Assembly: GCA_004431415.1 (NCBI GenBank)
Contig: QPMI01000470.1
Location: 248,001 to 312,000 of the forward strand
Source of the DNA: Cyanophora paradoxa CCMP329
Lineage: Eukaryota > Plantae > Glaucophyta
Direction of reading: 5' to 3'
DNA length: 64,000 bases
Shown: piece after piece, positions 1 to 64,000 of the stretch
How the letters are laid out: each line of letters starts with the position of its first letter
Position numbering within the stretch: the stretch's first letter is position 1
Translations under genes and position numbers: made by a program
Notes under the pieces: generated by a model
Databases searched by the model: none
The model's input: only the letters and a program-made list of their open reading frames with translations
Told to the model about the DNA's origin: nothing

Positions 1-1897
1 GGTACCAGTTGAAGAGGTGCAGGCGCCGGTTCGCGTTCGTATCCGGCCCGAACTGCTTGTTGATGACCACCTGAGGCGGGCGTGAGCGCGGGCGCTCTGG
101 CGCGCGGGGGGAGGCGGTCGGGAATCGCGGCGGGCAGCGGGCGGGCGCACCGGCGTCGGGACCGTGGCGCTAAGGCGCTGGCAGCCCGTGGTGACCCGAT
201 CGCCGCGCACCCCCTCCTGCTCCTCCGTGCCGCACCCGTGCCCCCCCTTCTTCTTCTTCTTCGTCTTCTTCTTCTTCGGCTTGGGCTCCGGCTTCTCTTC
301 GGCCTGCGCGAGCCAGCCCTCGCGCTCGAGCTCCGCCAGCTTGGCTCGCATGACGTCGAGGCTGCCCGTCTCCAGCGCCGCCTTGGCGGCCTCGTCGGCC
401 GCGTCCAGCAGCGCCTGATCCTGCGCGTCCCGCCCCATCAGCATCGCGACCGCCCGGCGGCGGGGACCGCGGGGTGGCGGCCGGGCAGAGGCGGGGGAGG
501 GGAGCGCGGGGGGCGGCGCACCAGCTCGGCGTTGTCGTGCGGCTTCCCCTTGGAAGCAAAGGGCATCGCCACCGAGCCGCAGGCGACGACGGCCGCGACG
601 CGCTTGATTGCGGCGCCCTCCGCGTCCCAGAAGAGGTCGGGCAGGTGGGCGGCGGCCAGCTCGCCGCCGAGGACGAGGCGCGTGAACGTCCCGCGCCCCA
701 TCACCGCGTCGTGCTTCCGCACCTCCCTTCCCGGCAGGCCGGGCGGGAGGGGCTTCAGGCCGTGGCAGAGGGCGCCCTGCGCGCCGGGGGCTCGGCGGGG
801 GCGCGCGTGGGGCGCGCCGGGGGCGTGCGGAGGGGCGGGCGGGCGGACCTGGGCCCGCAGGACCTCTTGGATGAAGCGCGTGTCCACCTCGCCGCCGCCG
901 GGGAGGTTGCAGCTGAGCACGAGCGTCTGCGGGGGCGACACGGCGCGCTTCGCCACCGCGACGGCGTGCAGGGGCCCGTGGGGGTCGTCGAGAAAGGCCC
1001 CCTGCAGGGCGCGCAGGGTCCACTCGGCGACGGGGCGCGGCTCGAGCCTCTTCCCCGACCGCAGCCGCAGCTCGGAGCCGTAGAGCTCGGCCTCGCGCGC
1101 CGGGGGCCCGAGCATCCCCGGAGGTACGATCCCGCGAGGCAGCTGCGGAGGGGGAGGCGCGTTCGGGCCGGGGCGGCAGCGGGCGGGCGAGAGGGGGCGT
1201 CTCGCACGTAGATCGTCTTGCCGGCCCAGCGGTGGGCCCCGAAGGACGGGAGCCCGTAGGTGTACCGCGCCAGGAGCGCGGCCTTGGCGAACGGATCTGC
1301 GGCAGGGCGTCGGGCGGGCAGCGGCGCTGCGAGCGCGGGGCGAGGAGGGGCGGGCGGACTCTTTGTGCGGAGGGGGCACGCCGGGCCCGGGAGCGCGTTG
1401 GACGCGCGCCTCTGCCCGCCGACCGCCAGCCCCGCCGCGCGCTTCTCGTTGCGCTTCCTCAAGGCCTCGGCGCGCCGAGCCGCCGCCGCCGGGTCGGCCG
1501 CGAGCGCCTCTGCCGCGGCGGCGCACAGGGCCGCGTCGTCCGCGCCGTCCGCCGACGCGGCGGCGGCCCCGGGCGGCTCCCGCGGCGGCTCCTGCTGCAG
1601 ACGCTCGCCCCTGCGCGGGCGGACGCGCCGCGGGGCCTCCTCCGCTTCCGCCCGGCCCGGCCGACCGCCGGGGCCGGGGCCTGCGCAGGCGCCGGACCGC
1701 TCCGGTTCCCCGACCAGGGCCGCCTGTGCGTTCTCGCGCCTCCGCTTGTGCGTGGCCTGCGCTGCAATGCCGCGGTGCCTGGCGGCCGCCTTCCTCGCCG
1801 CCTTGGTAGCCTTGGCCAGCTCCGTCAGCGGGATCAACTCCAGCCCCGCGCGCGCAAGCATGCCGCCGCGCGAGCTGCCGGGCCCGCCGTCCGGCAT
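1..1897 (-). CDS. Multi-exon hypothetical protein with a Lys-rich NLS-like tract; 3' end lies outside the window
   Basis: Exons 1897-1208, 1142-849, 776-522, 420-151 and 70-<1 join in phase 0 at GT..CAG introns into one open frame (...HRWAGKTIY|LPRGIVPPG...EVLRAQ|GALCHG...HDNAEL|DQALLDAA...PKPKKKKTKKKKK...|VVINKQFGPDTNANRRLHLFNWY). No family recognised. Confidence 0.6.
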
Positions 1898-2689
1898 GAT
1901 CTTCGGATGCGTGCTTCACCTGCGAAATTAAAGGCGAGGCGTCGGCGCGGGCGGCCGCAGGGCTCGAGCGAGTGGCGGCGAGCTTTCGATATCGGTCGCG
2001 TGGCGCGCGGGCTGCTCCGCGCACCTCTTCTCCGCCGCGCCCAATGCCCTAGACGAGCCAGCGGGCCTTTGCGGTGCGCCAGCAGCCGTCGGGGCTGTTT
2101 CTGCTGCAACAACGAGCTCCGTCGCGGACGCGTAGCTCGCCGATTCGTCGTTGGGTTCTGCTGGTGTCGAATCGAAAGGTGCCCAGGTATCACGCGACTG
2201 TTGCGACGTTGAGCCCCACTTGTCCGCTTAGATCGTCGCCACGGGTTTTCTTCGCGGGTACCCCCTTGGCCGCCCGCTGCCCGCAGTTAACGTTCACGTT
2301 CAGGCTGGAATCCGCTAGAGTATGTATACGCAGAGCTCGGGCGCCGGCCGCCATCCAATGATTTACTCGCGACCGGCTGCCTTTTTTCTCGTTGAATTCG
2401 AAGCCGCGAGTGCCGCTGACGAATGCGCGAGCCAAGCTCAGCCAAAAACTCGTGCGCCCTCGGTTTCATCGCCGCGGGGTGGGTTCAGGAGGCGCGGCCC
2501 TCTCGTGCGTGCATGCGCGCCCCGGACCCCCGCCCACCCCAGTGCTCGGCTCGGCAGAGACGACCGCAGCGGCCTCGGCGGATTCGACAGAAATGTACAA
2601 TGCCCGCCCGACCCGCGGGCGTCGGGCGAGCCGCCGAGCCGGCCCTGGGCCTCGCGGCCCCCTCGCCGCGCGCCGTAGCCGAGCCCGCC

Positions 2690-3589
2690 TCACTCGTCCT
2701 CGCCGCGGATCTTGCGGCGGAGCTGCGATCGCCCGCCCCGCCGGTCAGAAGAGGACGGGGATCGAGCCCGCCGGCGGGGCAGAGGGGGCGGGGGCACCTG
2801 GATATCCTGTGCGCGAAAGCGGCGGGCGCCGTCAGCCTCCGGCGCGTGCGAGGGCGAGCGCGGGGGGAGGGGGGCGTGCCTTGGGTTGGATGGTCGTGCG
2901 GCCGCGGTGGATCGCCATGAGGTTGGCCCCCTCAAAGGTCTGGATGAGGTGCATCTCGGCCGCCTCGCGCAGCGCCTCGATCGCCTCCTTCTGCCAGCGC
3001 AGGTCCTCGCAGGTGAAGCCGGCCTCGCGCCGGCGCTTGAACTCGTCCTGGGCCAGCTCCTTGACCTGCGGCCCGCGCGCCCCCGTCAGCCTCGTCCCCC
3101 CGCCCCGCCCCGCGCGGCCGCCCCGGGCGGACGCACCAGACGATCAAAGCGCGCGTAGGAGATGAGGGGATTAAACGTCTTCTGGTACTTGCGGATCTGA
3201 GGGAGAGCGGGGCCCGGTCAGGAACGAGGGAGGAGAAGGGGACGGGGGCGATGACGGGGGCTCGTTTTGTTTAGAGAGAGGGCGGCGGGGCGGACCTCGC
3301 GGAGGGCGACCGTCCCTGCCCCCGGCCCAACGCGCGCGGCGCTCAGCCGCGGAGCCGGCGGGGCCCGGCGGGGGATCGGGGCGGCGCACCGGGGCGGTAC
3401 CTGCGGGCGCGCTGGGGTGAGGCGGGGAAGGAAGGGCCGGGGGCGCGCTCGCGCTCTCGAGGCGCACCTGTGCGGCCTCTTGACGCCCCCGGCGGCGGGG
3501 GCGCTCTTCCGCGCGGCCTTGGTGGCCAGGCACCTCCTCGGCGCCTTGCCCCCGGTCGACCTCTTTGCCGTCTGCTTCATGCGCGCCAT
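2690..3589 (-). CDS. Histone H3 variant (146 aa, 7 exons); H3-like tail with a CenH3-like histone fold
   Basis: Exons 3589-3468, 3400-3390, 3315-3296, 3196-3137, 3065-2880, 2806-2798 and 2722-2690 give [146 protein letters not shown], colinear with H3 end to end. Confidence 0.93.
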
Positions 3590-3675: not shown

Positions 3676-3681
3676 TATTTA
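3676..3681 (-). promoter_or_regulatory. TAAATA TATA-like box of the H3 variant
   Basis: AT-rich hexamer in otherwise GC-rich DNA about 90 bp upstream of the ATG. The same hexamer precedes the genes at 55978, 57135, 59499 and 61280. Confidence 0.55.
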
Positions 3682-5643
3682 AGCGTCGGCCGGCGAGGGA
3701 AAAGGAGGGGAGGGGGATTGCGCGAAGCAACTCACCGGGGAGCGGCGGCGGGGAGACGGATTCGGGGGTAGAAAAGAAGGCGCGGGGGTGCCGAGGGCGG
3801 GCCCCCGGGCGGCCCCACCGGGGACGGGGCGGGAGGGGGCGGCGGCGGCCGGAGAACGGCGCGGGGCGCCCCGGCGACCCGACCCCTCGAGTCCTCCGAG
3901 CGATCGCCCCCTCTTGCGAGCGTTGGATCGACAGAGGGCTGCGGGGCGGGTGAGGGAAATCAAACAATCCGCCCTAGCGGCCCGCGGGCGCACCGGCAGA
4001 CGGTGGGACCCCGTCCGATCGATCGGGCTCGTCTTTTCGGTTCGTTTAAAAAAAAGCCCGGGCCGAATTAGTGTCCTAGGGGGGGGGGTACGTGCCACAC
4101 CGGCGCCGTACCTCACCTTTAGCTCGCGACCTCATGGAGCTCTAACCCGACCAAATCGACCCCGGGGAATCGAATGGCGGGGTCGGCGGGGGGCGTAGAG
4201 GGGGTACTGGAGCGCCAGGGAGGGGTCGGGGTTTTGATGGCGGCGCAACCTGGGCAAAGCCCGGTGAATAGCAGCCGATGGGTGCTAGTAAACGATCGGG
4301 CGGGGTTTGGGCTCACTCCGCCGCTCCGGCGACGCGCGAGATGCGTTCGAACGACGCCGGGTCGCTGCCGCGCGGCTCCTGCCGGCCGAAGGGCGCCCCA
4401 GAGGCCATCTGCGCACCCTACGATCGTACTGGGAGCGTTTGCCCGCGCGGGGCGGGCGGGAGCTCGGTGCGTTTGCGGGACGCGCCGTCGGCCACGCGGC
4501 GGCTCGCCGAGCGAGCGCGGACCGATCGGGCGTGTAGCGAGCACCGCAAAGGCCAGCAAACACGTTTCCCGGCCCGCCAGGCGTGCGACGCGACGACCAT
4601 TTGCCGATGTCTGCGGGAGTCCAGCGCAGGCCGAGCCCACGGTCAGCTTTTCATCGATCAAAGAGTGCGAGCTGCGCACCTGTGACGTCCTATGGCGGCG
4701 GGCTGCAGGATCAGGGATGCCGGTCGGTCGCGCGAGGGTACTCTTATTTCACTGGGGTACGCGTATCGCGGGCCAGTTTGCAGCAGCAGCCGTATGTGTG
4801 CAGTTTACATAAACGAGAACATGTGAGACGGGCGGCTGGGCGCCACGTCGCACCTTTCCTCGAGATTCAGGTGCTTCGGATCTCGTTCGATTTCCGCCCC
4901 CGCCGTCGCCAATTGAGCGCTTGACCTTGCGCAGGCGCAGTGCCCGGGCCCGGCGCCGGCGGAGCCCGCGGGAGCCCGAGCGCACGGGTGCACGTGCGGC
5001 CGGCATCGGAGATCAGATTTCTGCGCGCGATCCGCGTCCGTCCCGCGGCGCGTGCCGGGGGAGCTCGATCCGAGGTGCCGTGCCCGAGCTCGAGCGTGGG
5101 CGCCTGCACCTCCAGCCTCAGCTCGCAGCACGCAGCCGCAACGTGCGCGCCGCAGCTCGCACCGGCGTGGGCCGGCGTGCGCGCCAGCACGAGGCGCCAC
5201 CCCCCGATCTCTCCATTCGCGTCGGTTTGGAGGAACAGGCTAGGTGCGCAGCTGCAGGCCGCCGATGCGCACCGGCCGCGTCGTCGAGGCAGAGTAGAGG
5301 GCCGGGCGGGGGCGGGCGTGCGTCGCGTTGCGCCGCTGCGTTAGCTGCCTCGTCCCGTGCACGCCAAAAAACTCTGATGCGGTGTCTGCTTCGCAGGTTT
5401 CCTCCGGTGGGGGGCGGACGGCACGCCAGCAGTATTAGAGGCGCAGCGGACCGAGTCTCTTCTCTCGCGCTCGTTGCTGCTCAGGTACGCGCCGCTGTTA
5501 TTCGATCGTCCGGCGGCGTGCCCCCGCCCCCCTCTAGAACTCCACCCGGGCCCCGACCGCTGCCCCTGTACCGTTTATCGTTATCGATTTATTTTCTTGT
5601 CCTTTGAGCTACGTGTGCATCGTAGCTGCTTTCAATTTACCCC

Positions 5644-5873
5644 GTACCCCAAGCCGCGTTCCGCATTCCAGCGTTCCAGACCTGCCCTCGCCCCCGGCCC
5701 TGCGCCGCTGCACCGAATTGAACTCGATTCCGCCGAGGCCGTGGGTGCGCTCGCCGGGGCGCCGGGATCAGAAGGGGGGCGGAACGCTGGAATGCACGGA
5801 ACGCTCCTTACTCTCTCATACATTTAGAATTGGAATGAAGAGAGGAATGCAAGGGAATGCGGGCCGCGGGTAC
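5644..5873 (+). repeat. Dispersed ~230-bp GGAAT-rich palindromic repeat (MITE-like or hr-like), copy 1
   Basis: Starts GTACCCC..CCGCGTTCCGCATTCC and ends GGAATGCGGGCCGCGGGTAC (imperfect terminal IR). Internal IR GCATTCCAGCGTTCC/GGAACGCTGGAATGC. Five further copies in the window. Confidence 0.85.
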
Positions 5874-5997: not shown

Positions 5998-6224
5998 GTA
6001 CCCCAACCGCGTTCCGCATTCCAGCGTTCCAGACCCTCCTCCCGCCCCCGGCCCCGCGCCATTGCACGCAACCTCAACGCCGCCGGCGCCCATGGGTGTG
6101 CTCGCCGGGCCGCCGGGAGCCAAGGGGGGCGGAACGCTGGAACGCACGGAATTCTCCATACTTTCTAACACATTTAGAATTGGAATGAAGAGAGGAATGC
6201 AAGGGAATGCGGGCTGCGGGGTAC
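5998..6224 (+). repeat. GGAAT-rich palindromic repeat, copy 2 (tandem duplicate of copy 1)
   Basis: Near-identical to 5644-5873, and the similarity continues into the 3' flank (GTACAAGA...CTACCTGTC). Confidence 0.85.
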
Positions 6225-9836: not shown

Positions 9837-12800
9837 ATGGACGCGTACGGTGGCGAAGCCAAAGCTCGTCATGATCAGGTCATCGAGCGCATCATCGACC
9901 AGTTCGCACAGGAAGTGGTATACCTCGGAGTGCCCAACGATGCGCCCAGCTCCGCGGTGGACGACGAGCTTCGCAGCATTGTTGGGGCAAAGAGTCGCCT
10001 CTTTCGCTCTCTGGTTCTTCGAATTTTCACGGTTACGATTATCGTGACAAGATCCAACCTCGACAAGGCCCAGGATCCCGACGACGAGGACGCTTTGAAG
10101 GAAGCTCTCGTGTCCTCCATCTCCTCGACAGCTGAGGAAGACTTGAACAAAGCGCTGAGGGGCTGGTGTCGTCAGTGGAAGGAATCCGGATCGGCCTTCG
10201 GCCTCCTTGTCGTTCCGTTGAGCCATTGCATCAAGGTTTTCACAGCTCTTCTGGGACACAAGAATGCCGAGGAGCTCGGATCGACTCTCTCCAAGCGGAA
10301 GGACACACTCTTCCACGCCGTGTACACGTCAGTCGAAGCGCTTCCAAAGTCGCCAGTCCAGCCTACACCCAGCCTCAAAGCCTTCAAGCGGGTGATCGTG
10401 TCTGGTCGCTTGGGAACCAAATACGAGGACGATGCGGTAACGCTGTCGTACCTTTTGAGCATTCTGGGTGCTCTTGATCATGATCAGTAAGCGCCCTTTG
10501 CTTCTTCATGCACAAACAGCTAATATATATAAAGATGTAATATGCTACGATTTTCTGATCTACCCTCTGCCGTATCAGATTCATGAATCAAGGCGCAACT
10601 GGAAGCAAAGATCAAGGCCCATTTTCTCAAGATCAAACAACCGAGACGAAGTTCGCCGGGGCTGAAACGGTACGCGTACCCACGTACAACTGATATACAA
10701 TTGCAATTCTTTGCTTCCCACCGGCAAGGACTGATCGTAACTTTCATCGATCAGGTAACTGCAACGAGTGTCGGTCGACGTCTGCATCACTCGGGCTGGG
10801 ACAGGGTCTCGGGGTCTCTTTTACTCGAGAACCTCGGTTTGACATCATGGCCCGGCAATCTGGAGGCGCTGACGGCTCCTTGTGATGTCCGGGAGCTCAA
10901 ATTGCATCTCAACTATTCCGGCTCCCGCTCGAGCGCAGAAGACCTGTTTCCTTCGGAGCAACTGGTCAAACTGGTCAACTTGGAGAATCTGTCCATCAAA
11001 TGGCACAATCCGCATCTCAACTCTCTCCCCTCCGGACTAACGAAACTCGATGCTTTGCGGGTACTGGATCTAAGCGGAAGCCTTGGTGCGCGGCGATCCA
11101 TATCAAATAATGCCACGTGCAAATCCGCAACCATAGTATTCGATATTTATCTCAGTCTTTTTTGCGCGCAAGCCTTCTTAAGCAGAAGTCACGCCATCGT
11201 TTCTTCATGTTGGTCCTAATTAAACGACCGCGGCCTGCGTGCTCAGATTGCAAGCGAGATTCGAACGAACCATTCGAAGTGATTTGCAACCTCACATACT
11301 TGGAGCAGCTGGACATTCCCGCGTGCAACATTGAAAATGTTCCGCCAAACATCGGGAATCTGGGCCGTCTTCGACGTTTGAACCTCAGCTCTAACAAGAT
11401 CGGTGCGATGTCCTGGCTGAACGCTCCACACACAAATTCAACATTTTGCATTCGACCGCTTCACACTTCGGCACTGACACAGTGCAACAGATGCACAATC
11501 TTTTCCAAGCCAGTTCAGCAAGCTCGTCAATTTGGAGCATCTGTTCATGGACATGAATGACCTTCACAGTGTTCCATCGTCGATACTCTCGCTCTCGAAT
11601 CTAAAAGAGCTATCGCTTTTTAACTGCAACCTAGGTGCGTTCATATCGTTTTTGTTTAATGCGTATTCGAAGGGGGGGGGGTGTGTGTGTGTGGGGGGGG
11701 GACCTTGCAATCGGGTAAATCACAATGAGGGCTGACTCGCTTTCGAATACGGCAGACACAGAATCGTTCCCAACAGATCTAGAACTCGGCAAGCTCGTCA
11801 ATCTGAAGTCGCTGAACCTGGACGGTAACAACTTCAACGCTGTTCCTTCTTCGGTTCTCTCCCTCTCGAACTTGGAGGATCTATCGCTTCGTGATTGCAA
11901 GCTGCGTGCGTGGATTTCGATTGCGTGGCCTCCCCCGTGCCCCGTCGACAGAATGCGCTCTAGATCTGCGTTTATTTTTCTGTTTGATTATATTTTAATG
12001 CTGCTTTCGTGTAATTAGAATCCATCCCAAGTACGATCGGAAACCTTGCAAAGCTCAAGCGCCTGGATATCTCGAGCTCCGTGGGAGCAGGTTCGTCAAG
12101 GAACAGCCTGAGTACGTGCAAAGCCGTCTTGTTCCTCGCAATCGCTTGCTCACGTCGGATTCAGAGTCGGTTCCTAGCGAGATTGGGGATCTCGTCTGCT
12201 TGGAAGAGCTTGGGTTGGCCGACACACAGCTTGCGGGTCTACCCTCTCACATCGGTCAACTCAAGAAACTGCGCCGTCTTTTCCTCCAGCGGAACAAACT
12301 GAGTGCGCGCGCAAATTGAAACAAACATGCAGCCGTTTTTTTTGACACGACTTTGCGTCCTCGAGCAGCCCTGGATTCGATTCCGTCTGAGATCGGCAAG
12401 CTCAGCAATCTTCAGCTGTTGAATCTCTCGGAGAACAGGCTGGGTAGATTGTCAAATCGTCAACTGCTGAGCATTCTCCGCAAAAACCGCTCTCTCATTT
12501 TCGTGATACGCAGGTTTTGTCCCAAGTGCAATCTGGACCCTCGAGAGCCTGGTGGAGCTGTGGTTGGCCAATTCGCAGATCACGTCCGTTCCCCCACTCG
12601 TCGGGCATCTCAAGAACCTGCGCCGTCTCGTGCTTTCGAGGAACAAACTTGGTTAGTTGAAACATGGGGATAAGCTCCCAGCTGCAGCCATCCGTTTGTG
12701 TGTCTAACTCACTGCACCCTCTGCGTCGACCAGACCGGCTTCCCGGCGAAGTAGGACAGCTTGCGAACTTGGAGTCGCTCAATCTGAACAACACGGGGCT

Positions 12801-38457: not shown

Positions 38458-38500
38458 AGCGCGAGGGTTGACCACGCGGCGCAGAGCTCGCACGGAATTT

Positions 38501-52142: not shown

Positions 52143-52958
52143 CGGGGTACTCGAACGATCGTTTCGGCCCAACGCTAAATTCGCACGAATCCAACCGCGC
52201 TACGCGGTCTCTCCCGCGCCTATAAAAAGGCGGCCCAGCCGCGCCCCTCCTCATTCTTTGCCTCGCGGAAACCATGGAGCCGACCGCCGCCGCCGCCATC
52301 ACCGCCGCCCCCGCCGCCCGCCCGGAGGCCCAGCCGGGCGCGACGGCCCCGGGGACGGCGTCCCGCCCCGCGGTCTGGACCGCCGACCGCGTCGCGCTGC
52401 TCGTCGCGACCGCCGGCCTCCCCGCCGAGCCCGAGCTCGACGCCCTCATCCTCGACGCGCTGACGGGGTTCGATTACGAGGAGGAGTGCGCGCGGGCCGG
52501 CCTCTCCCTCCCCCTCTCCCCGCTCAGCGTCGCCGATGAGCGCTAGAGATCTCGAGATGCCGCTTCTACCACGACCCCCGCCGCCAGCTGCAGTACACGT
52601 AGCCCGTGCTTGTGAGCGTGCGTGTGTGCTGTAAGCTGACTTGTAATTAGAATTGGATGCTGCATTCGAATTCGAATTCGAGTTCAGACACTGCGAGTGC
52701 CGCCACTTGTCAACTCGTGCGTCTAAATAAGCTCTGTAGCTTGTCTTCATTGCATTTCTAAATATATGCATATGAGAGAGTATGGAGCGTTCCGAGCGTT
52801 CCCGGCGTTCCGGCGCCGGCCCCCCTTGCCTCTGGGCGGCCCAACGCAAGAGCATCCACGGGCGCCGGCGGCGTTGAGGTTGCGTGCTGCGCTGCAGGGC
52901 CGGCGCAGGGTAGGGAGGGCTGGTCCGGAACGCCTAACGCGGAACGCGACTGGGGTAT
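52143..52958 (+). repeat. Direct repeat unit 1: promoter + MEPTAA gene + 3' region + partial GGAAT repeat (copy 5, 52745-52958)
   Basis: Colinear with 54805-55808. The coding part is near-identical and the 3' part has diverged with indels. Confidence 0.85.
52274..52546 (+). CDS. Small orphan protein, MEPTAA family copy 2 (90 aa)
   Basis: Identical protein to 54936-55208. TATA at 52221. Confidence 0.75.
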   Translation: MEPTAAAAITAAPAARPEAQPGATAPGTASRPAVWTADRVALLVATAGLPAEPELDALILDALTGFDYEEECARAGLSLPLSPLSVADER

Positions 52959-53296: not shown

Positions 53297-54385
53297 CTAC
53301 GCGCAAGGTTTGCGCACGCGGCCGAGGCCGCGCAGGCCGGCTGCTTTCGCGCAGCTGCCGGCGCGCGCGCGATCGATGTCCGCGAGGCGCCGCGCAAGGG
53401 TGTCGAGCTCGGCATTGTCTCCCGGCTTTGCGAGCGCCGAGTAGAGCATGTGGGCCGTGGGCTGGCCAGCGCTCACAAACTGGAGGCCTTGGTAGGCCAT
53501 CCAGTCTTCCATCGTCACGCAGGCCCAGTCGGGGCAGTCGGCGGCGGCCTGGTTCAGCGTGCGCACGTCGAACCAGGGGCCCGCCGCGGTGCGGGTGGTG
53601 CGGCTCCGCCCGAGGTCAAAGGCGCACGCGATCCCGGCAAGCGCGGCGCAGTCCTTGCGCGCAGCGTTGGTGCTCTCGATGGCCCGGTTCAGGTTCACCG
53701 CCGCCTCGAACTCGGCGCTCCTGCCGGGGCGGCCGCCGCGGCCGGCGCCGTGCGCAAGGGCCGCGAGCTTGAAAGTGGTGCGATCGAACCGGACGATGTG
53801 CATGAACGAGGAGACGGGCACCGTCGTCGCCCCGGGAGGGAGCTGACCGCGGCTCCGGTTGCACTCCTCTGTGACGTCGACGAACCACGCGGGCGCCGCC
53901 CGCGCCGCGGCGTCGAGGGCGCGGTAGGCCTCGCCCTTGGCGGCGCCGAGGCGCACGGCGGCCCGCTGGACGCTCCTGTTCGCGAGGATAAAGGCCTTCA
54001 TCTTCTTCTCCCCCGCGTCCACCTCGCCGTCGCGCGCGGCCTCCTCGGCCTCCTCCAGGGCGTCGCGCACCGCGCGCGCCTCGGTCGCGCAGGGGCGCGC
54101 AGCGGGGCCCGAGAGCGCCTCCAGACCGTCGGCGGCGGTGCGCGCGCGGGCGGCGCACTCGTCGCCAAAGAGGCCGCCTGAGCGCTCGCGGAGGCTGCTG
54201 CAGGTCCAGCGGATGGCGAGGATGTCGGGGGCGCAGAGGGAGCCGACCTCGACGACGTGGCGGAGGAGCTCGTCGGGGAGGTGGAAGAGGGTGAGGCTGC
54301 TGGGGCGGGGCCCGGTCGCGCGCGACGCAGGCGCGACGGCGGCCTTGGGGAGCGTCGCGAGGAGGTCGGCGGTCGCGAGGGCCAT
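53297..54385 (-). CDS. Intronless F-box protein
   Basis: LFHLPDELLRHVVEVGSLCAPDILAIRWTCSSLR fits the F-box consensus. CATAAAA and CACATTC upstream. Confidence 0.8.
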   Translation of the reverse strand: MALATADLLATLPKAAVAPASRATGPRPSSLTLFHLPDELLRHVVEVGSLCAPDILAIRWTCSSLRERSGGLFGDECAARARTAADGLEALSGPAARPCATEARAVRDALEEAEEAARDGEVDAGEKKMKAFILANRSVQRAAVRLGAAKGEAYRALDAAARAAPAWFVDVTEECNRSRGQLPPGATTVPVSSFMHIVRFDRTTFKLAALAHGAGRGGRPGRSAEFEAAVNLNRAIESTNAARKDCAALAGIACAFDLGRSRTTRTAAGPWFDVRTLNQAAADCPDWACVTMEDWMAYQGLQFVSAGQPTAHMLYSALAKPGDNAELDTLARRLADIDRARAGSCAKAAGLRGLGRVRKPCA

Positions 54386-54804: not shown

Positions 54805-55808
54805 AGGGATACTTGAACGCTCGTCTCGGCCCAACGATAGATTCGCACGAATCCAACCGCGCTACGCGGTCTCTCCCGCGCCTATAAAAAGGCGGCCCAG
54901 CCGCGCCCCTCCTCATTCTTTGCATCGCAGAAATTATGGAGCCGACCGCCGCCGCCGCCATCACCGCCGCCCCCGCCGCCCGCCCGGAGGCCCAGCCGGG
55001 CGCGACGGCCCCGGGGACGGCGTCGCGCCCCGCGGTCTGGACCGCCGACCGCGTCGCGCTGCTCGTCGCGACCGCCGGCCTCCCCGCCGAGCCCGAGCTC
55101 GACGCCCTCATCCTCGACGCGCTGACGGGGTTCGATTACGAGGAGGAGTGCGCGCGGGCCGGCCTCTCCCTCCCCCTCTCCCCGCTCAGCGTCGCCGATG
55201 AGCGCTAGAGAAATGCCGCTTCGACCATGCCCCCGTTGCCAGTATACGTGCTCGCAGCCCGTGGTGTGGGTATGTGTGTATGTGAGCTGTAAGCTGGTTT
55301 GTCATTGTATGCTGAATTCGAATTCGAGTTCAGATACTGCGATTCGAATGTCGTGAGAGTCGCCATCTGTCATTTTTTAATTGCAACTCGTGCACGCGCA
55401 CCGATCTAAAGCTAACTGTAGATCTTCCCCGAGATAATTGTATCTAATTATAAGTACTTCTATGATAAGCTTTGTAGCTCGTCTTTGATTTTGACTCAAA
55501 TGGTTTTATTCATGGTCATGAGTGATATCTCGAGCTCATAATCAGGATCGATCCGCGAATACGTACCCGCCGCCTACGCCTCTGCTTGTCATCATTCCCT
55601 TTGCATTCCTCTCTTCATTCCATTTCTAAATGTATGAGAGAGTATGGAGCGTTCCGTGCGTTCCAGCGTTCCGGGCCCCTTGCCTCTCGGCGACCCAACG
55701 AGGAGCATGCACGGGGGCGCCGGCGGCGTCGAGTTTTGTTGCGGCTGCGCACGGCCGGGGGCAGAAGTAGGTCTGGAACGCTGGAATGCGGAACGCGGCC
55801 GGGGGTAC
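54805..55808 (+). repeat. Direct repeat unit 2, including GGAAT repeat copy 6 (55563-55808, minus orientation)
   Basis: Colinear with 52143-52958. Confidence 0.85.
54936..55208 (+). CDS. Small orphan protein, MEPTAA family copy 3 (90 aa)
   Basis: Identical protein to 52274-52546. TATA at 54883. Confidence 0.75.
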   Translation: MEPTAAAAITAAPAARPEAQPGATAPGTASRPAVWTADRVALLVATAGLPAEPELDALILDALTGFDYEEECARAGLSLPLSPLSVADER

Positions 55809-55977
55809 AGGGCGAGAGAAGCTTAAGCCCAAGGCCTGCAGCTGCTTCCGAGAGGACCGGACGGGGCCGGCGCACTCAAGTTGCTGTTCGAGAACGCATA
55901 AATACCACCGACTCGACCCCGAAAACAGCAGCAACCAGGACCGCCTCCGACGCCAAAACAACCAAGACGGGACGTCC

Positions 55978-56946
55978 ATGTGCAAGGACACGTTTGAAAT
56001 TGTGGAGAGCGACGAGGGACCCATCTGCACTCGGTGCGGCGTCTGCATCGACTCTCTCGACCACGAAGACCTCGCCCGCGCCTACGGCCACGCCCCTGAT
56101 GCAGAGGACGACGCGCTCGCAGAGATGATAACCGTGCACGTTGCCGCCCCGCCCAGCCCGCGCATCTGCAGCGGCACGCCTGCCTCGGCCTCCAGGCCTA
56201 GAACCGGGCCGGCGAATTTAAACGGATCGGATCCCGCGCACGAATCGGAAGCCGGGTGCGGCCTCTCGGAGCCCCACGGACAGGAGCTGCCCCAGTGGGG
56301 TTCGGACGAGGAGACGGAGACGACGGACGACGGCTCGCCGTCCCGGGACCCGGCCGCCCCGCGAGTGAAGCGCGGGACGTTCGACGTCGGTCCGGCGGTG
56401 GGGCGGGCGCTGCAGAGGGCCGCCGACGCCATGGACCTTCCCGAGGGGGTCGTGCGCCTGGCGCGCGAGGTGCTCGCGCCGCGCAAGCTCCGCTCGGGCC
56501 ACAACGCGGCGGTCGCGGCGGCGGCCGCGCTCTACTGGGCGGCCAACGCCATGCGGTGCCCCAGGACCGTCGCAGAGGCCACCGACTGGGCGCCCGGGCT
56601 CGTCAACCGCCGCAGCGCCTTTCTGCTCATGGTCCGCAAAATCGCCGGCTGGCACGGGGGCAGCGTCCGGTACGTGCCGAAGCCGCTGGACTACATCGAC
56701 CGGCTCGCCGCCCGCATCGGACTCTCGGGCAAGGAGCGCGAGGCGGCCCGCGAGCGCGCGAGGGCGCTCGCCGCGGCCGGCTCGGGCCGCTCGCCCGTCG
56801 TCCTCGCGGCGGCGGCCATCTGCGCCGCCACGGGCCTGCCCCACGACGCGGTGGCCGGCGCCGCGGGCATCACCGCCTGCGGGGTGCGCAAGGGGATGGC
56901 CGCCTTGCGCGCGCACCTGTCCAGTCCTCTTGTGGGCGCGAGCTAG
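55978..56946 (+). CDS. Intronless divergent TFIIB-family transcription initiation factor
   Basis: Partial Zn ribbon MC...SDEGPICTRCGVC, cyclin repeat 1 (DAMDLPEGV...AVAAAAALYWAA...PRTVAE), linker PLDYIDRLAARIGL and repeat 2 GRSPVVLAAAAI. TAAATA at 55899. Confidence 0.88.
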   Translation: MCKDTFEIVESDEGPICTRCGVCIDSLDHEDLARAYGHAPDAEDDALAEMITVHVAAPPSPRICSGTPASASRPRTGPANLNGSDPAHESEAGCGLSEPHGQELPQWGSDEETETTDDGSPSRDPAAPRVKRGTFDVGPAVGRALQRAADAMDLPEGVVRLAREVLAPRKLRSGHNAAVAAAAALYWAANAMRCPRTVAEATDWAPGLVNRRSAFLLMVRKIAGWHGGSVRYVPKPLDYIDRLAARIGLSGKEREAARERARALAAAGSGRSPVVLAAAAICAATGLPHDAVAGAAGITACGVRKGMAALRAHLSSPLVGAS

Positions 56947-57134: not shown

Positions 57135-59376
57135 ATGGCAGCGGGAGACGCGGATGACGTTCCTGCCCCTTCGGGCTCGGGCCCGGGCGGCGGCACCCCG
57201 GCCGCGGGCGCCGGCGCCGGCGCCGACCTGGCGTCGGCGGCGGCCCCTCCAGCTCCCGTCCCGCCGCCCGAGCCCGAGTCCCGCCCCGGCCGCGTCGCCC
57301 TGCCGGCCTACTTTTCCGAGTGGCGGCACGAGATGATCAACTTTCGCCACCAGTGCGCGCGCTGCGGCTGCCGGCAGCCCCTGCCGCCGCTGTTCCTCTA
57401 CCCCTGCACGGTGGCCGCGCTGCTCGAGCGGACGGGCGCCAAGACTGTGAGCGAGGCGATCGACGCGCACCCGCGGGCGGCCGCCAACGTCTTTCGCGGC
57501 GGGCGCATCGCCTGCACCCCGTGCGCCCTCTCGCTCGCCTCGGGCGGGGCCTTTCCACAGGCCTCGGCCCCGCGGGGCCCGAAGGCTTGAATCCCGACGG
57601 CGGGGCGTGCGGCGCGGCCGGCTGCGACCACGCCGCCCTCTCGCCCTGCAGCCGGCTCGACGCCTACGCCTCCTACCTGGGGTACATCGTCGAGGGAGGG
57701 GAACCGCGGGCGTGGACGGAGGGCGAGGCCTGCGGGCGCGCCCTCTTGGCGTCCGTGCACGAGGTCGGGGCGAGGCTGCGCCTCCCCGCTCCCGCCCCGC
57801 CGCCGGCCCCTCTGCCGCCTCTTCCGCCCCCCGACCCCCCCGCCGCGGCCGCCGGGGCCGCCGCCGGAGGAGAGCCGCAGACGGCCGCCGCCGCGGCGAG
57901 CTCGAGCTCGAGCGCTGCGGGAGGGGCGGCGCCCAAGGAGCCGCGATCGCCCGCGACCCGACGCAGGGGCGGCGGCGCGCGCGCTGGCGGCGGCTCGCGA
58001 TCGGGCGGCCCGTCTCGATCGGGAGGGGGAGCGTCGTCCTCGCGCGCGGCGGCCACGGGCAAGCGGGCGGCGCGGGACGGGGAGCCCTCCGACCGCGAGA
58101 GCTCGAAAGAAGAGGAGGAAGAGCGGGACGAGCTCGCAGAAGAGGACGAAGCTGCGGCGGCCGCGGCCGGCGGCGCAAAGGCCAAGGGGCGCCCCGGCGC
58201 CTCTGCACGACGGCCCCGGCCGGCGGCGAGGACGAGGAGGAGGAAGAGGCTCCGGAACAGTCCGACAAGGGCGCGGGGCCCAGCTCCAGGGCGAGGCGCA
58301 AGCGCTCCAAGTGGGCCGCAGCCGCAGACGACAGGCGCCCCTGGCGGAGCGACAAGCTCATCAAGGTGCGCCCAGCGAGATGGAGCTCAAATTAATTATA
58401 AGATTGAAAGCTGCGGCCCCCTTACCTCGCGCGCGCAGGTCCTGGTGGCGGCCTACGCCGTGCCGAGCGAAGAGGGAGACGAAGACGCCGAGGGGAGCTC
58501 CGGCGGCGGCGGCGGCGGCGGCGCGGCGGCGGCGGGCGGGGGCGAGGGCAGCGCCGCCGGCTCGGGCGCGGAAGAGGACGACGAGGACGAGTGGGAGGCG
58601 GCCCAGCGCGAGCGGTGGGCCAAGTCGTTCGAGCGCCTGGTGGAGGAGCTCGAGGGCGACGGGGACGGCGGGGGCAGCAAGGGCAAGCAGCCGGCCGAGG
58701 ACGACGGCATCGACCGGGACGGATTCGAGGCGATCGTCATGGGGCTAGAGGGGGGCATCTCCCCTGAGCTGGTCGGGCTGAGGCTGGACGCCAGCGCCGA
58801 GGCGCGGGCCGAGCTCCTGCGCTCCGCGACCGAGGCGGGCGTGGGGCGCCTGCGGGCCCTCTTGCTCATCGCCTGCGCCGTGCTGGGCATCTACGAGCGC
58901 TTTGCGGCGCGCTTCAGCCGGAGCCGCCGCTCGTGGGGATTCTTTCGCCAGGTGCACCAAATTTCGCGCCCTTTAATTTTGTACAACTTCAGAGAGGCGA
59001 CGCGCGGGCGCAGCTCAACGTCGACCCGCGCTACGACGACGCCCTGCGCTGCTGCGGCTTCCGCACCGACGAGCCGACCTTCAAGGCTCGCACCTACCTC
59101 GAGCTGCGCCACCTCGCCTCGACCGTCCGGCGCTTCCCCGGCCTCGCGCGCGTGGCCGGCGCGGCGCACGCGCAGGACTTCGTCAACTTTGTGCCGCTGC
59201 TGCTCCGCGCGGACGAGCGCGGGCTGGAGGAGGTCTGGCAGCGGCTGGAGGACGAGCTGCCCGAGGGGATGACGCTGCCGGACGACCTGCTGGCCGAGGC
59301 GGCCGACCGGGGCGACGGCGGGCCTGGCTCGGACGGAGGCGAGGGCGGCGCCGGCTCGGACGGGGAGGGCGCGTAG
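57135..59376 (+). CDS. Multi-exon orphan protein B (paralog of 31014-34490)
   Basis: ORFs 57135-57590, 57320-59272 and 58933-59376 are joined by introns (~58366-58438, ~58952-58992) and apparent frameshifts (~57560, ~58190). TAAATA at 57098. Confidence 0.65.
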
Positions 59377-59498: not shown

Positions 59499-59915
59499 AT
59501 GGGCCTGGAATCGATCGAGCTCGTCGACATCGCGATCTACCCCACCTCTGCGTTTCCGACGGCGAGGGAGGGCGTGCGCGTCAACACGTACCACGCGGTC
59601 AGGGACGCGCTGGACGTGAGCATGACGCCGCACGGGCTGCGCGCCTCGACCTGCGTGCGCGAGGACGCCATCCCGATCCTGCGCAAGCACGAGCGCAAGG
59701 GCTACGCGCGGCTCACGGCGTACGTCGAGGACGAGGGTGGCGTCGCCGTCACGCACATCGTACTCGCCCGCGACGAGCGCGAGGTCGCGCCGCCCAAGCC
59801 CCGCGCGGCCGCCGGCGGCGTCGCCGCCCCCGGCAAGAAGGCCGCCGGCCCCAAGATCAAGGCCGAGAAGCCCAAGCCCAAGGGGGAGGCGGGCGAGGAG
59901 GGCTCGGACGAGTGA
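59499..59915 (+). CDS. Hypothetical protein (138 aa) with a Lys/Pro-rich tail
   Basis: Clean ATG ORF with TAAATA at 59439. Confidence 0.72.
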   Translation: MGLESIELVDIAIYPTSAFPTAREGVRVNTYHAVRDALDVSMTPHGLRASTCVREDAIPILRKHERKGYARLTAYVEDEGGVAVTHIVLARDEREVAPPKPRAAAGGVAAPGKKAAGPKIKAEKPKPKGEAGEEGSDE

Positions 59916-60506: not shown

Positions 60507-61280
60507 CTAGGACGAGTCGCCCGCGTCGTCTGCCTCGCCCGCGCGGCCTGCGCCGCCGCCCTCTTCCTCCGCGTCCACCTGAATCGGTGCGCCCGCGTTC
60601 GAGTGCTCCCTGGCGAGCCGTCGCATGACTGCCAGCTTGCGCTTCGCCCCGCCGCCGCCGTCCTTGACGCCCCGCTCAAAGGCGCGGGACGCGGCGATGC
60701 CGGGAAAGCCGTGGGCGATGGCGTAGGCCTTCCACGGGCCCTTGTTCTTCGTGTACGAGAACTTGCTCCCGCGGTTGTGCTCCCGCAGCCTGCGATCCGC
60801 CTGCGATCAGCGCGGCGCCGGGCGCGCCCCGCGTGCGGCTGCGGGCTGGGCTCGCGCGCGGCGCGGCGCGCGGGGCGCCGGCGGCGGCGCTCGGCACGCT
60901 CGGCGCGCTCGGCGCGCGGCTCGGGCGGGGGGCGCTCACCGGCGGGCCATGTCCGAGGTGCTGCCGACGTAGCACACGTTGTCCGGGTTCGTGATGAGGT
61001 AGACGACGGGGCGCTTCGGGTGGCGCAGGTGCAGCGGCTTGGCCTTGCCGTCCGCCGTCTTGCTGCCGGCGTCCGCCTTGGGCTTGGCTCCCGCCGCCCT
61101 GACCTTGCCGCCCCCGCCGCCCCCGCCCCCGCCCCCGCCGCCCGCCGCCTCGCCCGCCGCCGGCGGCCCGGGCTGACCGGCTCCGTCCGCAGCGTCGTCG
61201 GTAGAGGCGCTCTGCGAGGCCGGCTCGGCGGCCGTGGTGCCATCGCCGTGGATCGACTCGCTCGGGGGCTCCTTCTCCAT
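60507..61280 (-). CDS. SLX1-like GIY-YIG endonuclease (one intron 60790-60939; apparent 1-nt frameshift near 60670)
   Basis: The spliced sequence VVYLITNPDNVCYVGSTSDMARR|LREHNRGSKFSYTKNKGPWKAYAIAHGFPGIAASRAFE fits the SLX1/GIY-YIG pattern (YxL...YVGxT...RRLxxHN...T...PW...GF...A..FE). TAAATA at 61401-61406. Confidence 0.85.
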
Positions 61281-61806
61281 GGTCTCTTCGCCCCGCGCCG
61301 CCGGCGGGGGCCGCTCCGCTGCGAGCTCCACGGACCCGCCCATCCCCCCTCTTGAGATCCCGCGAGGTCCGCTTGCCCCCGCCCCGCCCCCGCGCGGTCT
61401 TATTTACGCGGACCCGCCCGGGCCCCCGCCGGCGCAGGGGTACCGCGTGCCCGCTGGCTCCCCTCTCTTCGTGCGCAGTACCCCCTCCTTCCCCGCTCGG
61501 CTTTCCCCCCCCCCTCTGATCCCGCCTCGCAGCGGGCGCGGCGCCGCGGGTCCCTCCCGGCGGGGCGGCCGCCGGGCCCGTGCCCCACGCAGGATCCCGG
61601 CGTGCTCGGCTCGGCGCGGGCGGCGTGCTGCGGGCGCGCTCGGTGCGTATTTTCGTTCATCTCGCTCGCTACCCGCCTGGCAGGGCCGCGCTCGTGACGG
61701 TGTGCGGCAGGGAGGCGGGGGCGGCGCGCCTCTCGCGCTTTGCGGGGGGCCCGCGGGGGCAGGACGATGGGTACCGGGCGGCTCGCGCCCGGCGGCGGCT
61801 TGGCGG

Positions 61807-64000
61807 TCACCTCTGGCGGCACGCGGGGCGCGGCGTCGGGGCGCGGGGTCGGCCGTCGGCGTCCATGGTTGGCGGGGCGGCGGGGCGGCGGCGTCGTCGG
61901 GAGGACGAGGGGCTCGGGCGCTCCGTATTATGCGTCCCGTGCCGCCGCCGCCGCCTCCGCCTCCTCCGCCTCCTCCGCCGCCTCCGGCGCTCACGCCCCG
62001 CGCCTGGGGTTCTTCGGGGGCGGCCGCGGCGGCGCCCCGTGTAGCTCCCGCGCCCGCCGGGGGCCGGCTCGGCCCGCGGGGGCTCCTGGGCGGCCGCGGC
62101 GAGGCGCCGCAGGACCTCCTCGGCCGTCGTCGTCACGTCGACCGCGCCGCCCGTCGCGCGGTACTCCACCTCCACGGCCGCCCTCGGGTACGAGTAGTCG
62201 TCCGGCCCGCCCTCGTTCGACGGCGTCCAGAGCGCGCCGAACCGCCGCAGGATGACAAAGCGGTTCTCCTGCTGCCCGGAGGCGAGGCCCACCGTCGCCG
62301 TCAGCCGCGCAAAGACCGTCGACGGTAGGAGGTCCCCGCGCCGCGTCGCCATCGCCGCCACGACCGTCCGCGCAGGCATCGGGCTCGGCGTGATCAGGCG
62401 GATGTGCCAGGGCGCCGGCGGCGGCGGCATCTCCCCCTCGCGCCCCTCGCGGCGCCCGCCCGGGGAGGAGCGACTCCCGCGCGGCCGGCCGCGCCCCCGC
62501 TTCGGCGCGGCGGCCACCTCCTCCGGCGCCGCCGCCTCCACCGCCTCTGCCGCCGGAGCGGCCGCCGGCGCGGGCACCGGCACCGCCGCGGGCGGCGGCT
62601 CCCTCGGCGTGAGCTGCAGCGCCCTGCGGAGCGCCTTCCGGGGGCGGGTCGCACGGCGGCCGCCGCCGCTGCCCTCTGCCTCCTCCACCTCCTCCCTGTC
62701 GCTCCGGCCGCGCGCCGCCGGCTTGCGCGGGGAGCAGCGGTGCCGCTCCTTGCCCCTCGTCGTCCCGAAGATGCGGCAGCACTCGGGGCACCAGCGCCCC
62801 TCGGCCCGGGCCAGCTCGCGCTCGACGCGCATGCCCTCTTTCGGCTCGTCCGAGCTCTCGTCCGAGCTCCCGCCGTCCTCGCCTTCGTCGGACCCGCCGC
62901 CGCCGCCGCCGCCGCCAGGGGCGCCGCCGCGCGCCTCGCCCGCGGCGTCCTGGTCCTCGCCTCCCGACTCGCTCCCTTTCTCGTCCTCCGTCCCCTCCTC
63001 CTCCTCCTCCTCCTCCTCCTCCTCATCGTCGGTCCCGGCGCGCTCCGCCCGCTTGGCTCCCTCCAGGGCCGCCCGCCCCGGCCCCTCCAGCGCCCGGATC
63101 GACGGTCCCTCGTGCTCGGCGGCGGCGCGCTCCAGCCACGCCAGCGCGGCGCACGCCTGCGCGGCGGCGCGTCGGAGGCGCGCGGGGCGGCAGCGCGCAG
63201 CGACGGGGGCGGGGCGGGGCGCGGGCGGCGCACCTCGCGCTGCGTCCTGTGGCAGTCGTAGTGCATCGTGGCGGTCTTCGGCGTGTGCTGGAGGAGCCGC
63301 GCCGTCCCCTCGATCACGCTGGTGGCGACGTCCCCCTCGATCCGCCCCTTGGCCGCCTGATCGCGCACCCAGGTCGTCACCACGGCGCGCATCGTCCTCG
63401 GCGGGACCGGCACGCCCGTCCAGCGGCAAAAGGCCTGCGCCCCCGCCGCCCCCACCGGTTCGCCTCGCGCCCTCCCCCGACCCCGCGCCGCCTCACCTCC
63501 TTGGCAAACGCCGTCCAGGAGCCGCGGCGAAAGGGCTCGCCGGCCGACGTGAAGAAGATGTACCCCTGGTCCTTGGCGCCCTCCCGGAGCAGGTGCCGGC
63601 GGTAGTTTTCCACGTACTCGGTCAGCGGTTCCTGACGCGCCGCGCGGCAGGTCTTTCTGCGGACGCGGGGCGGGGGGGCGGCGGGGGCGGGCGCGGGGCG
63701 CACCTGGAGCTGCTCGGCCACCGGCACGACCACGGCCCCGTGCCGCTTCTGCGGGCCCCATCGCCGGCGCGGGGGGGCGCGGGGGGTACCCCCTCTTCGC
63801 GCGCACCGCCGTCTTGTGGGTGAGGGCCCCCTCGCTCGGCCCGTCCTGGATCCGCATGCTCAGGATCGACATGTTCCACCGACCGTTGTCCTTGCGCAGG
63901 GTGTCGCCGATCTTCAGGTGCTGGAGGAGGCCCGGCCGCGCCGGGCTGATCGAGAGGAAGCCGAGGAGAAGGCAGTCCCGCAGGTGCTTTGCCTTTTGCC
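61807..64000 (-). CDS. Spliced tyrosine recombinase with a C-terminal C2HC zinc finger and two AT-hooks; 5' end lies outside the window
   Basis: Exons >64000-63807, 63748-63704, 63631-63497, 63434-63234 and 63156- give RDCLLLGFLSISPARPGLLQHLKIG (Arg), HKTA|KRHG (Lys), YIFFTSAGEP, PPRTMRAVVTTW (HxxR position), ARLLQHTPKTATMHYD (His, Tyr), then CPECCRIFGTTRGKERHRC, PKRGRGRPR and RRRGRPR. The exact C-terminus is uncertain. Confidence 0.87.

Follow-up and report, generated by a model that had tools for sequence, protein, structure and literature searches.

The window, i.e., the whole 64,000-nt stretch of Cyanophora paradoxa DNA that was analysed, holds the following genes and features (+ and −, strand).

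1..1898 (−): multi-exon orphan gene, read by eye, leaving the window at its left end
2690..3589 (−): histone H3 variant (Pfam; PDB alignments; exons by eye)
3676..3681 (−): TAAATA motif upstream of H3; also at 55899, 57098 and 59439 (+) and at 61406 (−)
5640..5859 (−): palindromic dispersed repeat, copy 1
5998..6209 (−): palindromic dispersed repeat, copy 2
9837..14750 (+): multi-intron LRR gene (LRR Pfam matches on 7 exon frames; end by eye)
15100..21050 (+): one or more long orphan genes with many introns (GC3 0.61-0.67; limits set by eye)
21400..30500 (+): one or more multi-intron genes; two sets of OTU-like motifs, Ulp1/C48 domain at 27414-28250
31017..31805 (−): orphan exon (GC3 0.80; a contig of run X21 covers 30649-31697)
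35289..38064 (no strand): 134-bp satellite, about 20 copies
38246..38458 (+): palindromic dispersed repeat, copy 3
38607..38855 (+): small orphan A, copy 1, with a CTATAAA promoter; identity with copies 2 and 3, 92-93%
39674..40636 (−): 320-aa orphan P0007, exact gene model in EukProt
41615..45571 (+): P0001, intronless, 1318 aa: PrimPol-like AEP, putative zinc-binding linker and SF3 (D5/P4-type) helicase
46003..46587 (+): 194-aa orphan P0008, CTATAAA promoter
48258..48470 (+): palindromic dispersed repeat, copy 4
48728..49534 (+): 268-aa gene P0005, F-box-like motif, akin to orphan A in its start region
52274..52546 (+): orphan A, copy 2 (shares 272 of 273 bases with copy 3)
52744..52955 (+): palindromic dispersed repeat, copy 5, the most diverged
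53297..54385 (−): 362-aa gene P0006, F-box-like motif
54936..55208 (+): orphan A, copy 3
55593..55812 (+): palindromic dispersed repeat, copy 6
55978..56946 (+): divergent TFIIB, intronless (Pfam, NCBIfam)
57135..59376 (+): Cys-rich orphan, then a multi-exon orphan, by eye
59499..59915 (+): 138-aa orphan P0004; two further contigs carry relatives
60507..61343 (−): GIY-YIG nuclease, one 150-nt intron (profile search and splice sites)
61807..64000 (−): tyrosine recombinase (YR), catalytic half and acidic/C2H2-like tail, with four introns (58-77 nt), extending past the window's right end

The AEP/D5 primase-helicase claimed in an earlier note on this DNA is borne out by P0001. Its helicase part matches the DUF5906 profile (E 1.7e-9) and PHROG primase families, and its AEP motifs align with PrimPol-like proteins. 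The zinc-binding linker is a putative site read by eye and had no match in Pfam. A search of 1.84 billion representatives gave only 5 remote matches, 21-39% identical over parts, the best of which (21%) is an amoebozoan transcript. P0001 itself was the only match among 7976 scored candidates of 724-2307 aa; these records thus contain no other intact primase. With a model of the AEP (pLDDT 39.5), the top rows in VIA-align are relaxases at Z 7, within background for such a model. Judged by its sequence, P0001 is close to no sampled group.

The YR gene points inward, its start lying past the window's right edge. The identification as a tyrosine recombinase stands: when the four GT-AG introns are spliced out, the core frame stays open, and it matches its C. 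paradoxa paralogue P0003 (tig00020538) at 176 of 214 positions (82%). P0003 has a weak XerD profile match (E 2.2e-4) and matches Atlas clusters at 0.96-0.97, with PF00589 in 15% of the members of one cluster. The window's YR gave no match in a Pfam search. In the R-H-R-Y tetrad, read by eye, both R residues, H and Y are present, and the H of HxxR is changed to R. A C48-like motif set, seen by eye only, precedes the YR in P0002 and P0003; the protease-like part of these proteins had no C48 match in Pfam. Neither P0002 nor P0003, both imperfect gene models, matches DUF3435, the Starship captain type, at E <= 1.

P0004 adjoins the 3′ end of the YR gene at 1.9 kb. A relative with 70% identity is found on tig00020539, its gene number 17 away from that of the YR paralogue; that this contig adjoins tig00020538 is taken from the contig numbering alone. 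P0004 and the YR have thus diverged in step (70% and 82%). A letter-identical match to P0004 on tig00000179 runs on into the window's other frame. Because P0004 has a paralogue on the next-numbered contig and an identical match on a third, the YR/P0004 module is likely to be multi-copy, and the genes are not the single-copy set that would have spoken against a mobile element. In 3 of 3 DNA runs, contigs of the region have 1.8-2.1x the depth of contigs elsewhere; this is weak evidence for such an element, since the comparators were chosen through short matches rich in GC and the runs are possibly the window's source. This doubling and the tig00000179 match could also stem from a redundant contig in the assembly or from a segmental duplication. 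No locus related to the YR paralogue or P0004 was found in IMG/VR.

The nuclease, previously called SLX1-like, is retained as a GIY-YIG domain, two exons of which match Pfam below its cut-off (E 5e-4 and 3.5e-3). The TFIIB gene is confirmed by Pfam and NCBIfam (profile E 1.3e-8), and its only PDB matches at E <= 0.01 are two chains (E 8e-7), which we take to be archaeal TFB. The F-box assignment of P0005 and P0006 holds at the level of motifs read by eye, but neither of the two segments matches the Pfam F-box. P0007 has a sub-threshold Borealin-N match of 28 residues, which is likely a coiled coil. The exons of the left-end orphan that were searched have no Pfam, PHROG or NCBIfam match, and the orphans at 57135..59376 match no family. 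Tandem gene duplications in the window reach 89% over 556 nt. For the 5 intronless gene models found in the protein collection, no further member exists there at 90% identity. As stated earlier, housekeeping genes are absent from the Pfam scan of ORF pieces, save the H3 variant and TFIIB themselves.

Two promoter classes are seen. TAAATA precedes 5 of the 21 gene starts examined, those of H3, TFIIB, the 57.1-kb and 59.5-kb genes and GIY-YIG, and joins H3 at 3.6 kb to four genes at 56-61 kb, as proposed before. Shuffled sequences give a mean of 0.16, and none of 1000 shuffles reaches 5; it should be noted that the motif was chosen post hoc and the 21 starts were hand-picked, three of them placed one base off and scored as misses. 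CTATAAA lies upstream of six other starts (shuffle mean 0.07). Both motifs may be ordinary host TATA boxes. The TAAATA genes have a GC3 of 0.89-0.97 (57.1-kb gene left out).

The claim of a dispersed repeat common to both sides of the window was also correct: six palindromic copies of about 215 nt, 70-85% identical, lie at 5.6-6.2 kb and 38-56 kb. The fold of one copy has z = -5.2, equalled by 0 of 200 shuffles. Short inverted ends are visible by eye in 5 of 6 copies, and the repeat may be a MITE. Its summed depth is 9.9-10.8x that of the region's unique contigs, a weak indication as depth is no copy number; few copies seem to exist outside the window. Baculovirus hr repeats are dispersed imperfect palindromes between genes. 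The palindromes described here are alike in layout and by analogy might work as origins or as enhancers. The satellite, also reported before, consists of 19.8 copies of 134 bp with 92% matches.

The block at 9.6-30.5 kb differs from its surroundings, with a GC3 of 0.61-0.78 vs 0.85-0.97 in flanking genes, and has no copy of the palindromic repeat. The multi-exon LRR gene at 9.8-14.7 kb, whose first ORF has a GC3 of 0.66, is absent from the earlier note. The orphan gene or genes at 15100..21050 have no match in Pfam. Where OTU/Ulp1 proteases had been suggested, Ulp1/C48 is supported by profile (E 8.6e-11) but OTU is not, as only one of two exons gave a match (E 0.12) and the motifs were otherwise read by eye. 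One contig from run X21, guessed to be RNA, joins 30096 to 30161 without the intervening letters. The block may be cargo or a separate insertion. The proposal of a giant mobile element is supported in that the genes are virus-like, partly intronised and not single-copy, but the whole 64 kb is only possibly one element.

These two composition classes, with the tandem duplications, raise the possibility that there is no single element. In a repeat-rich accessory region, a Crypton-like YR transposon with a C48 protease would have piled up with the decayed remains of a viral primase cassette, MITEs of one family and duplicated host genes (H3 variant, LRR, OTU/Ulp1), all being later duplicated together. 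Some Cryptons carry a C48 peptidase (PMC3212892, in the part available), C48-like motifs precede the YR in P0002 and P0003 (by eye), and X21 contigs cover middle-block genes, one of them across an intron. However P0004 and the YR diverged in step, with the P0004 relative on the next-numbered contig, the palindromic repeat appears scarce outside the window, one promoter class is common to both sides, and every tested frame is intact. Such a pile-up is unlikely.

Viral hallmarks were sought in 222 ORF pieces (145 + 77; 220 taken by codon score from 909, and 2 added). The search for capsid (MCP), packaging ATPase/A32 and PolB proposed earlier, run as Pfam profiles and extended to RNA polymerase and VLTF, gave no match in any of these pieces across the 64-kb window, although divergent capsids escape Pfam. 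The Mriyaviricetes markers HUH endonuclease, RuvC, VLTF2/VLTF3 and MCP were likewise unmatched in the window. Mirusviricota have as hallmarks an HK97 capsid, a portal and a terminase; none of these had a Pfam or PHROG match in the window. No element end, target-site repeat or empty site is seen within the 64 kb. Thus the capsid-less state and the status as a single element are unproven.

The window could be the intron-rich accessory portion of an endogenous virus from a class already described (Nucleocytoviricota GEVE, Mriyaviricetes- or PLV-related, mirusvirus) that spreads or spread as virions, its capsid, packaging and polymerase genes lying beyond. The accessible parts of the sources report GEVEs in C. 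paradoxa (PMC12344493), regions related to Mriyaviricetes in a glaucophyte assembly (10.1101/2025.04.19.649669), an intact GEVE in which 61 of 506 genes have introns and two regulatory programmes operate (10.64898/2026.10.09.758095), and nucleus-dependent nucleocytoviricots without most replication genes (10.64898/2026.08.29.747986). The intronless primase-helicase, TFIIB and F-box-like genes are compatible with this origin. Against it are the lack of any hallmark in the pieces scanned, the empty IMG/VR searches, and the weakness of P0001's 5 matches where a typical NCLDV D5 would, in our expectation, have many relatives. Integration genes are also reportedly absent from mriyaviruses, in the accessible text of 10.64898/2026.06.19.733378, whereas the window has a YR. 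A virus of this kind is considered somewhat unlikely. The claim that the locus lies outside any nameable class is upheld for the primase-helicase, which has no close sampled group, but not for the locus as such, given the viral regions reported in the host lineage.

The H3 variant matches PF00125 (E 2.8e-10), which confirms the earlier assignment. Its tail is identical to canonical H3 at 32 of 39 positions in PDB alignments, with the changes T3M, R8K, K9R, K18R, Q19C, T32A and K37R and with K4, K27 and K36 retained. Loop 1 is about 10 residues longer than in H3.Y, F84W and T107A are found, and Q68 is lost (by eye). Six introns, with micro-exons of 11 and 20 nt in a putative exon structure read by eye, give the gene a host-derived look. 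A CenH3 is recognised by a longer loop 1, loss of Q68, F84 and T118 and a divergent N-terminal tail (PMC4359364, in the part available). The longer loop and the loss of Q68 and F84, with the 134-bp satellite nearby, could mean a host chromatin or centromere locus, with the variant as host CenH3, the satellite as centromeric and the virus-like genes as domesticated or stray passengers. However the tail is not divergent, T118 is retained, and the YR, the primase and the paralogous copies are left unexplained, thus a centromere locus is very improbable.

The reading tentatively preferred, at somewhat less than an even chance, is that the window belongs to a large element of viral origin that integrates by its YR, primes its own replication and comes from a lineage unsampled in the databases searched, possibly of an undescribed kind. 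In its favour are the paralogues of the YR and P0004, the repeat and TAAATA on both sides of the window, the pairing of a YR with an AEP-SF3 fusion and the remoteness of P0001's matches. Against it are the lack of another intact primase, the differing middle block, promoters that may be ordinary host TATA boxes and the host-derived look of H3. The element would insert into the nuclear genome of Cyanophora and replicate in the nucleus. The YR would excise and integrate a circular form. The SF3 helicase would open the palindromic repeats, which lie beside an AT-rich tract and may act as origins or enhancers, and the AEP would then prime. Extension would fall to host polymerases because PolB is not seen, and branched intermediates would be resolved by the GIY-YIG nuclease. 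Host RNA polymerase II and host spliceosomes would transcribe and splice, and the element's TFIIB would prefer one promoter class over the other. The H3 variant, not methylatable at K9, may keep heterochromatin off the element. The element would have acquired the 9.6-30.5 kb block as cargo, and virion genes would either lie beyond the window or be lost. A bolder version is distinctly doubtful: a new class of capsid-less giant mobile element, i.e., a Starship-like YR transposon outside fungi that self-replicates by its PrimPol-helicase and has its own chromatin from a K9-less CenH3-like histone, the satellite perhaps segregating an episome or mini-chromosome.

The preferred virus-derived element can be set beside known systems. 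Cryptons are small units with short terminal direct repeats. In the available part of PMC3212892, CryptonS/F with a C48 peptidase are especially alike in their intron-bearing eukaryotic YR with linked C48-like protease motifs; in the window the protease-like part is apparently fused to the YR and other genes seemingly travel along. AEP-SF3 fusions with a YR are the usual replication and integration pair in PLV-type viruses, which are endogenous and multi-copy in a protist genome (10.64898/2026.06.19.733378 and PMC10120064, both in part). The window has such a YR and helicase-based replication gene. However PLV insertions mostly measure 15-30 kb and carry MCP, mCP and ATPase, of which none is seen in the 64 kb. 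The window's genes are sparse, several contain introns, and they include TFIIB and H3. The repeat and promoter links cover 3.6-64 kb, longer than a compact 15-45 kb PLV genome with its terminal repeats if this is one element. Nucleocytoviricota GEVEs (punuivirus and those of C. paradoxa; PMC12344493, in part) are alike in size, TFIIB, partial intronisation, two promoter classes and the AEP and D5-like SF3 architecture that P0001 displays, but the window lacks an MCP, A32, PolB, RNAP or VLTF match, its promoters are TATA-like and P0001 has no close relatives. Mriyaviricetes (PMC11253617) share an AEP-helicase, the absence of PolB and RNAP and probable nuclear replication, and related regions are reported in a glaucophyte; they are 35-45 kb, lack an integrase and are defined by HUH, RuvC, VLTF2/3 and MCP, which are not seen here. 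Starships (PMC11162782, in part) would be alike in a YR that moves tens of kb of cargo, if the preferred reading holds, but the window has no DUF3435 match, a non-fungal host and its own primase-helicase. A Starship carries its YR at the 5′ end and direct repeats at both ends, whereas the YR here begins past the right edge of the window and points inward.

Large YR-driven cargo elements are described from fungi only, as far as the accessible text of PMC11162782 goes, and in the literature searched a YR with a primase-helicase is found only in compact capsid-coding viruses. If the preferred reading is true, a multi-copy glaucophyte element of >60 kb with host-like introns, TFIIB and an H3 with K9R would supply the stage so far missing between large DNA viruses that are endogenous and giant transposons. 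Its lineage may extend further, because the helicase subfamily is also found in an amoebozoan transcript and in a eukaryote-looking metagenome contig. The alga is culturable and its methylome is published, and it would allow a direct test of whether mobile DNA evades H3K9/5mC silencing by means of its own histone.

The 64 kb window is GC-rich and mosaic in base composition (0.47-0.82), with short GT-AG introns, and seven of its proteins are present as EukProt entries. The features on which the analysis rests are:

5.6, 6.0, 38.2, 48.3, 52.7 and 55.6 kb, six copies of a palindromic dispersed repeat of ~215 nt; the two left copies are in tandem and opposite in orientation to the four right copies
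9.6-30.5 kb, a middle block of LRR, orphan, OTU and Ulp1 genes
41615..45571 (+), a primase-helicase of 1318 aa (P0001)
59499..59915 (+), an orphan protein of 138 aa (P0004)
61807..64000 (-), a tyrosine recombinase (YR), which leaves the right end of the window

The gene list of the earlier note holds for the YR, AEP/helicase, TFIIB, H3 and Ulp1; the GIY-YIG nuclease is weak, and F-box and OTU are seen at the motif level only. Pfam matches were obtained for H3, Ulp1, a DUF5906 helicase, TFIIB and LRR exons, and weakly for two GIY-YIG exons. Rfam gave no matches. The TFIIB gene is without introns and divergent in sequence, and it matches two PDB chains that we take to be archaeal. At 57288-57548 (+), two Cys-pairs with zinc-finger spacing, without a Pfam match, may resemble VLTF2, a late transcription factor of viruses. 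Stretches of 60-200 nt are duplicated inside the OTU/Ulp1 gene region (21435-23062 and 26897-28847).

The sequence of P0001 joins an AEP with PrimPol-type motifs to an SF3 helicase. Only five other relatives were found at E 0.001 among 1.84 billion representatives, the top one an Echinamoeba exundans transcript at 21%. The primase gave two matching stretches but no loci in IMG/VR, and nothing above noise in the PDB. The AlphaFold model of the AEP has a pLDDT of 39.5; its top Foldseek PDB rows were human PrimPol (E 0.05) and a Pithovirus primase (E 0.055), and VIA-align on this model was uninformative. A metagenome scan with the helicase alignment returned one locus of 2.2 kb (L001), in which positions 1141-2248 carry a related helicase over several frames, plus a microsatellite. 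From its sequence this helicase looks eukaryotic, and either intron-split or decayed. No long piece of X21, a run guessed to be RNA, was listed over the primase, nor any RNA-run match for 41-46.6 kb, and neither result says anything about expression. Contigs of X21 do cover parts of 28-35 kb, and one spans an intron.

With one YR exon as query, the window's own gene model, P0002, was found together with its paralogue P0003 (tig00020538_g10388), a Cyanophora paradoxa protein in EukProt; C. paradoxa is accordingly the most likely host. P0002 tracks the window sequence with frame switches, and thus was predicted from DNA differing by indels. When spliced by coordinates, the YR core has four GT-AG introns, zero stops and 176/214 residues identical to P0003. 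The latter shows a weak XerD match and a match of 0.96 to integrase-bearing Atlas clusters. One YR exon, in frame, had no NCBIfam match, and the YR found no phage by tblastn, no PDB chain in a profile search and nothing in a metagenome scan. Upstream of the YR, beyond the window, P0002 and P0003 both display a C48/adenain-like protease motif set, read by eye and without Pfam support, in an apparent fusion with the recombinase. The window Ulp1 and this motif set fail to align.

The pairing of a YR with a primase-helicase is the same replication and integration pair seen in Polinton-like viruses, according to the accessible parts of 10.64898/2026.06.19.733378 and PMC10120064. Starships would be alike in scale (PMC11162782, in part), but P0002 and P0003, both imperfect gene models, gave no match to the DUF3435-type Starship captain at E <= 1. 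Viral hallmarks were sought in 222 ORF pieces (220 chosen by codon score out of 909, plus 2 extra); none of them matched a family for a capsid or packaging ATPase, for PolB or RNA polymerase, or for VLTF or terminase, with divergent capsids known to escape Pfam. The window might be part of a described GEVE, a mriyavirus-like virus or a mirusvirus, with such genes outside it, which we consider somewhat unlikely. GEVEs are already published for C. paradoxa and Mriyaviricetes-related regions for a glaucophyte (PMC12344493 and 10.1101/2025.04.19.649669, as far as their available text goes); mriyaviruses, however, are described as without an integrase in the part of 10.64898/2026.06.19.733378 that is accessible, whereas the window has a YR. 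A new capsid-less class of element is doubtful. The literature search, thin in subscription coverage, found nothing on this locus or gene combination, and figures or bioRxiv supplements may map the contig as a GEVE. In the accessible part of PMC6704402 the words "viral", "virus" and "recombinase" each occur 0 times.

All repeat copies contain an AT-rich tract and a hairpin built of iterated 7-mers. Five of the six share one short inverted end motif, as in a MITE with a 4-base target (5640-6209, 38246-38458, 48258-48470, 55593-55812). At 50680-50859 a second imperfect palindrome is present twice in tandem, each copy ~85 nt long and the pair 74% alike. Positions 39422-39507 are an (AT)43 run. 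Upstream of gene starts, TAAATA is found at 5 of 21 and CTATAAA at 6 others, both far exceeding shuffles. As judged from sequence, repeats and promoter motifs tie the left 9 kb of the window to the right 26 kb. In the middle block the repeat is absent and GC3 is lower. One promoter and orphan A were recently duplicated (52144-52696 / 54806-55342; 89% over 556 nt, ORFs 272/273 identical), and their summed depth would correspond to 6-8 copies when set against that of the region.

In three DNA runs, possibly the window's own source, unique contigs of 28-48 kb have 1.8-2.1x the depth of contigs from elsewhere (13, 14 and 14 of 15 listed rows, excluding zero rows and one repeat-paralogue row, with 342 further rows beyond the listing), and the repeat core about 10x that of the region, although depth is not copy number. 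The G-rich tract at 32180-32600 carries a 168-nt duplication, and the G-rich bin is without short-read contig cover. Unrelated nested insertions within a duplicated region, an unlikely explanation, would accord with the raised depth of the unique contigs and with the differing middle block; the repeats and promoters shared by the two sides point the other way. P0025, the P0004 match on tig00000179, is letter-identical to the window barring one skipped stretch and one frame switch, and P0004 has a 70% relative in tig00020539_g10405. Consecutive contig and gene numbers, under the usual numbering practice, suggest that the diverged YR and P0004 relatives may be neighbours. Two results speak against several copies: a full-length primase was found only once, and all five gene models found are single-member clusters. 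IMG/VR scans found no locus for P0003, for A4 (a query for P0004), for P0009 or for the core of the repeat. P0004 had no usable match in the Atlas, and its AlphaFold model has a pLDDT of 44.

The tail of the H3 variant is identical to canonical H3 at 32/39 positions. Its changes include R8K and K9R, so that lysine 9 is missing; K4, K27 and K36 are retained. In the fold, loop 1 is lengthened, F84W and T107A are present and T118 is retained. Read by eye, the gene has six introns, two of which flank micro-exons. With the two micro-exons of 11 and 20 nt at 3296-3400 (-) included, the conserved H3 sequence that follows the tail is recovered, and a later intron appears to begin GC, not GT. A centromere-type host locus is very improbable. 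The variant agrees with some CenH3 criteria and departs from others (PMC4359364, in its accessible part). A Borealin N-terminus match at 39677-40636 (-) fell below threshold (22.9 bits vs a cut-off of 24.4) and is probably a coiled-coil artefact, though a CenH3-like histone and a satellite share the window. In Acanthamoeba, H3K9me is enriched at methylated regions, as stated in the available portion of PMC12344493; this gives a motive, though no proof, for an anti-silencing role of K9R.

The giant-element interpretation of the earlier note is partly supported overall, and the observation behind it is likewise confirmed in part. We tentatively favor, at slightly less than even chance, a large virus-derived element, all of whose functional steps we infer. 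It would be integrated by its YR, and its DNA would be primed and unwound at the palindromes by its own primase-helicase. The element would rely on host polymerases and host splicing; its TFIIB may bias transcription, and the K9R histone may shield its chromatin.
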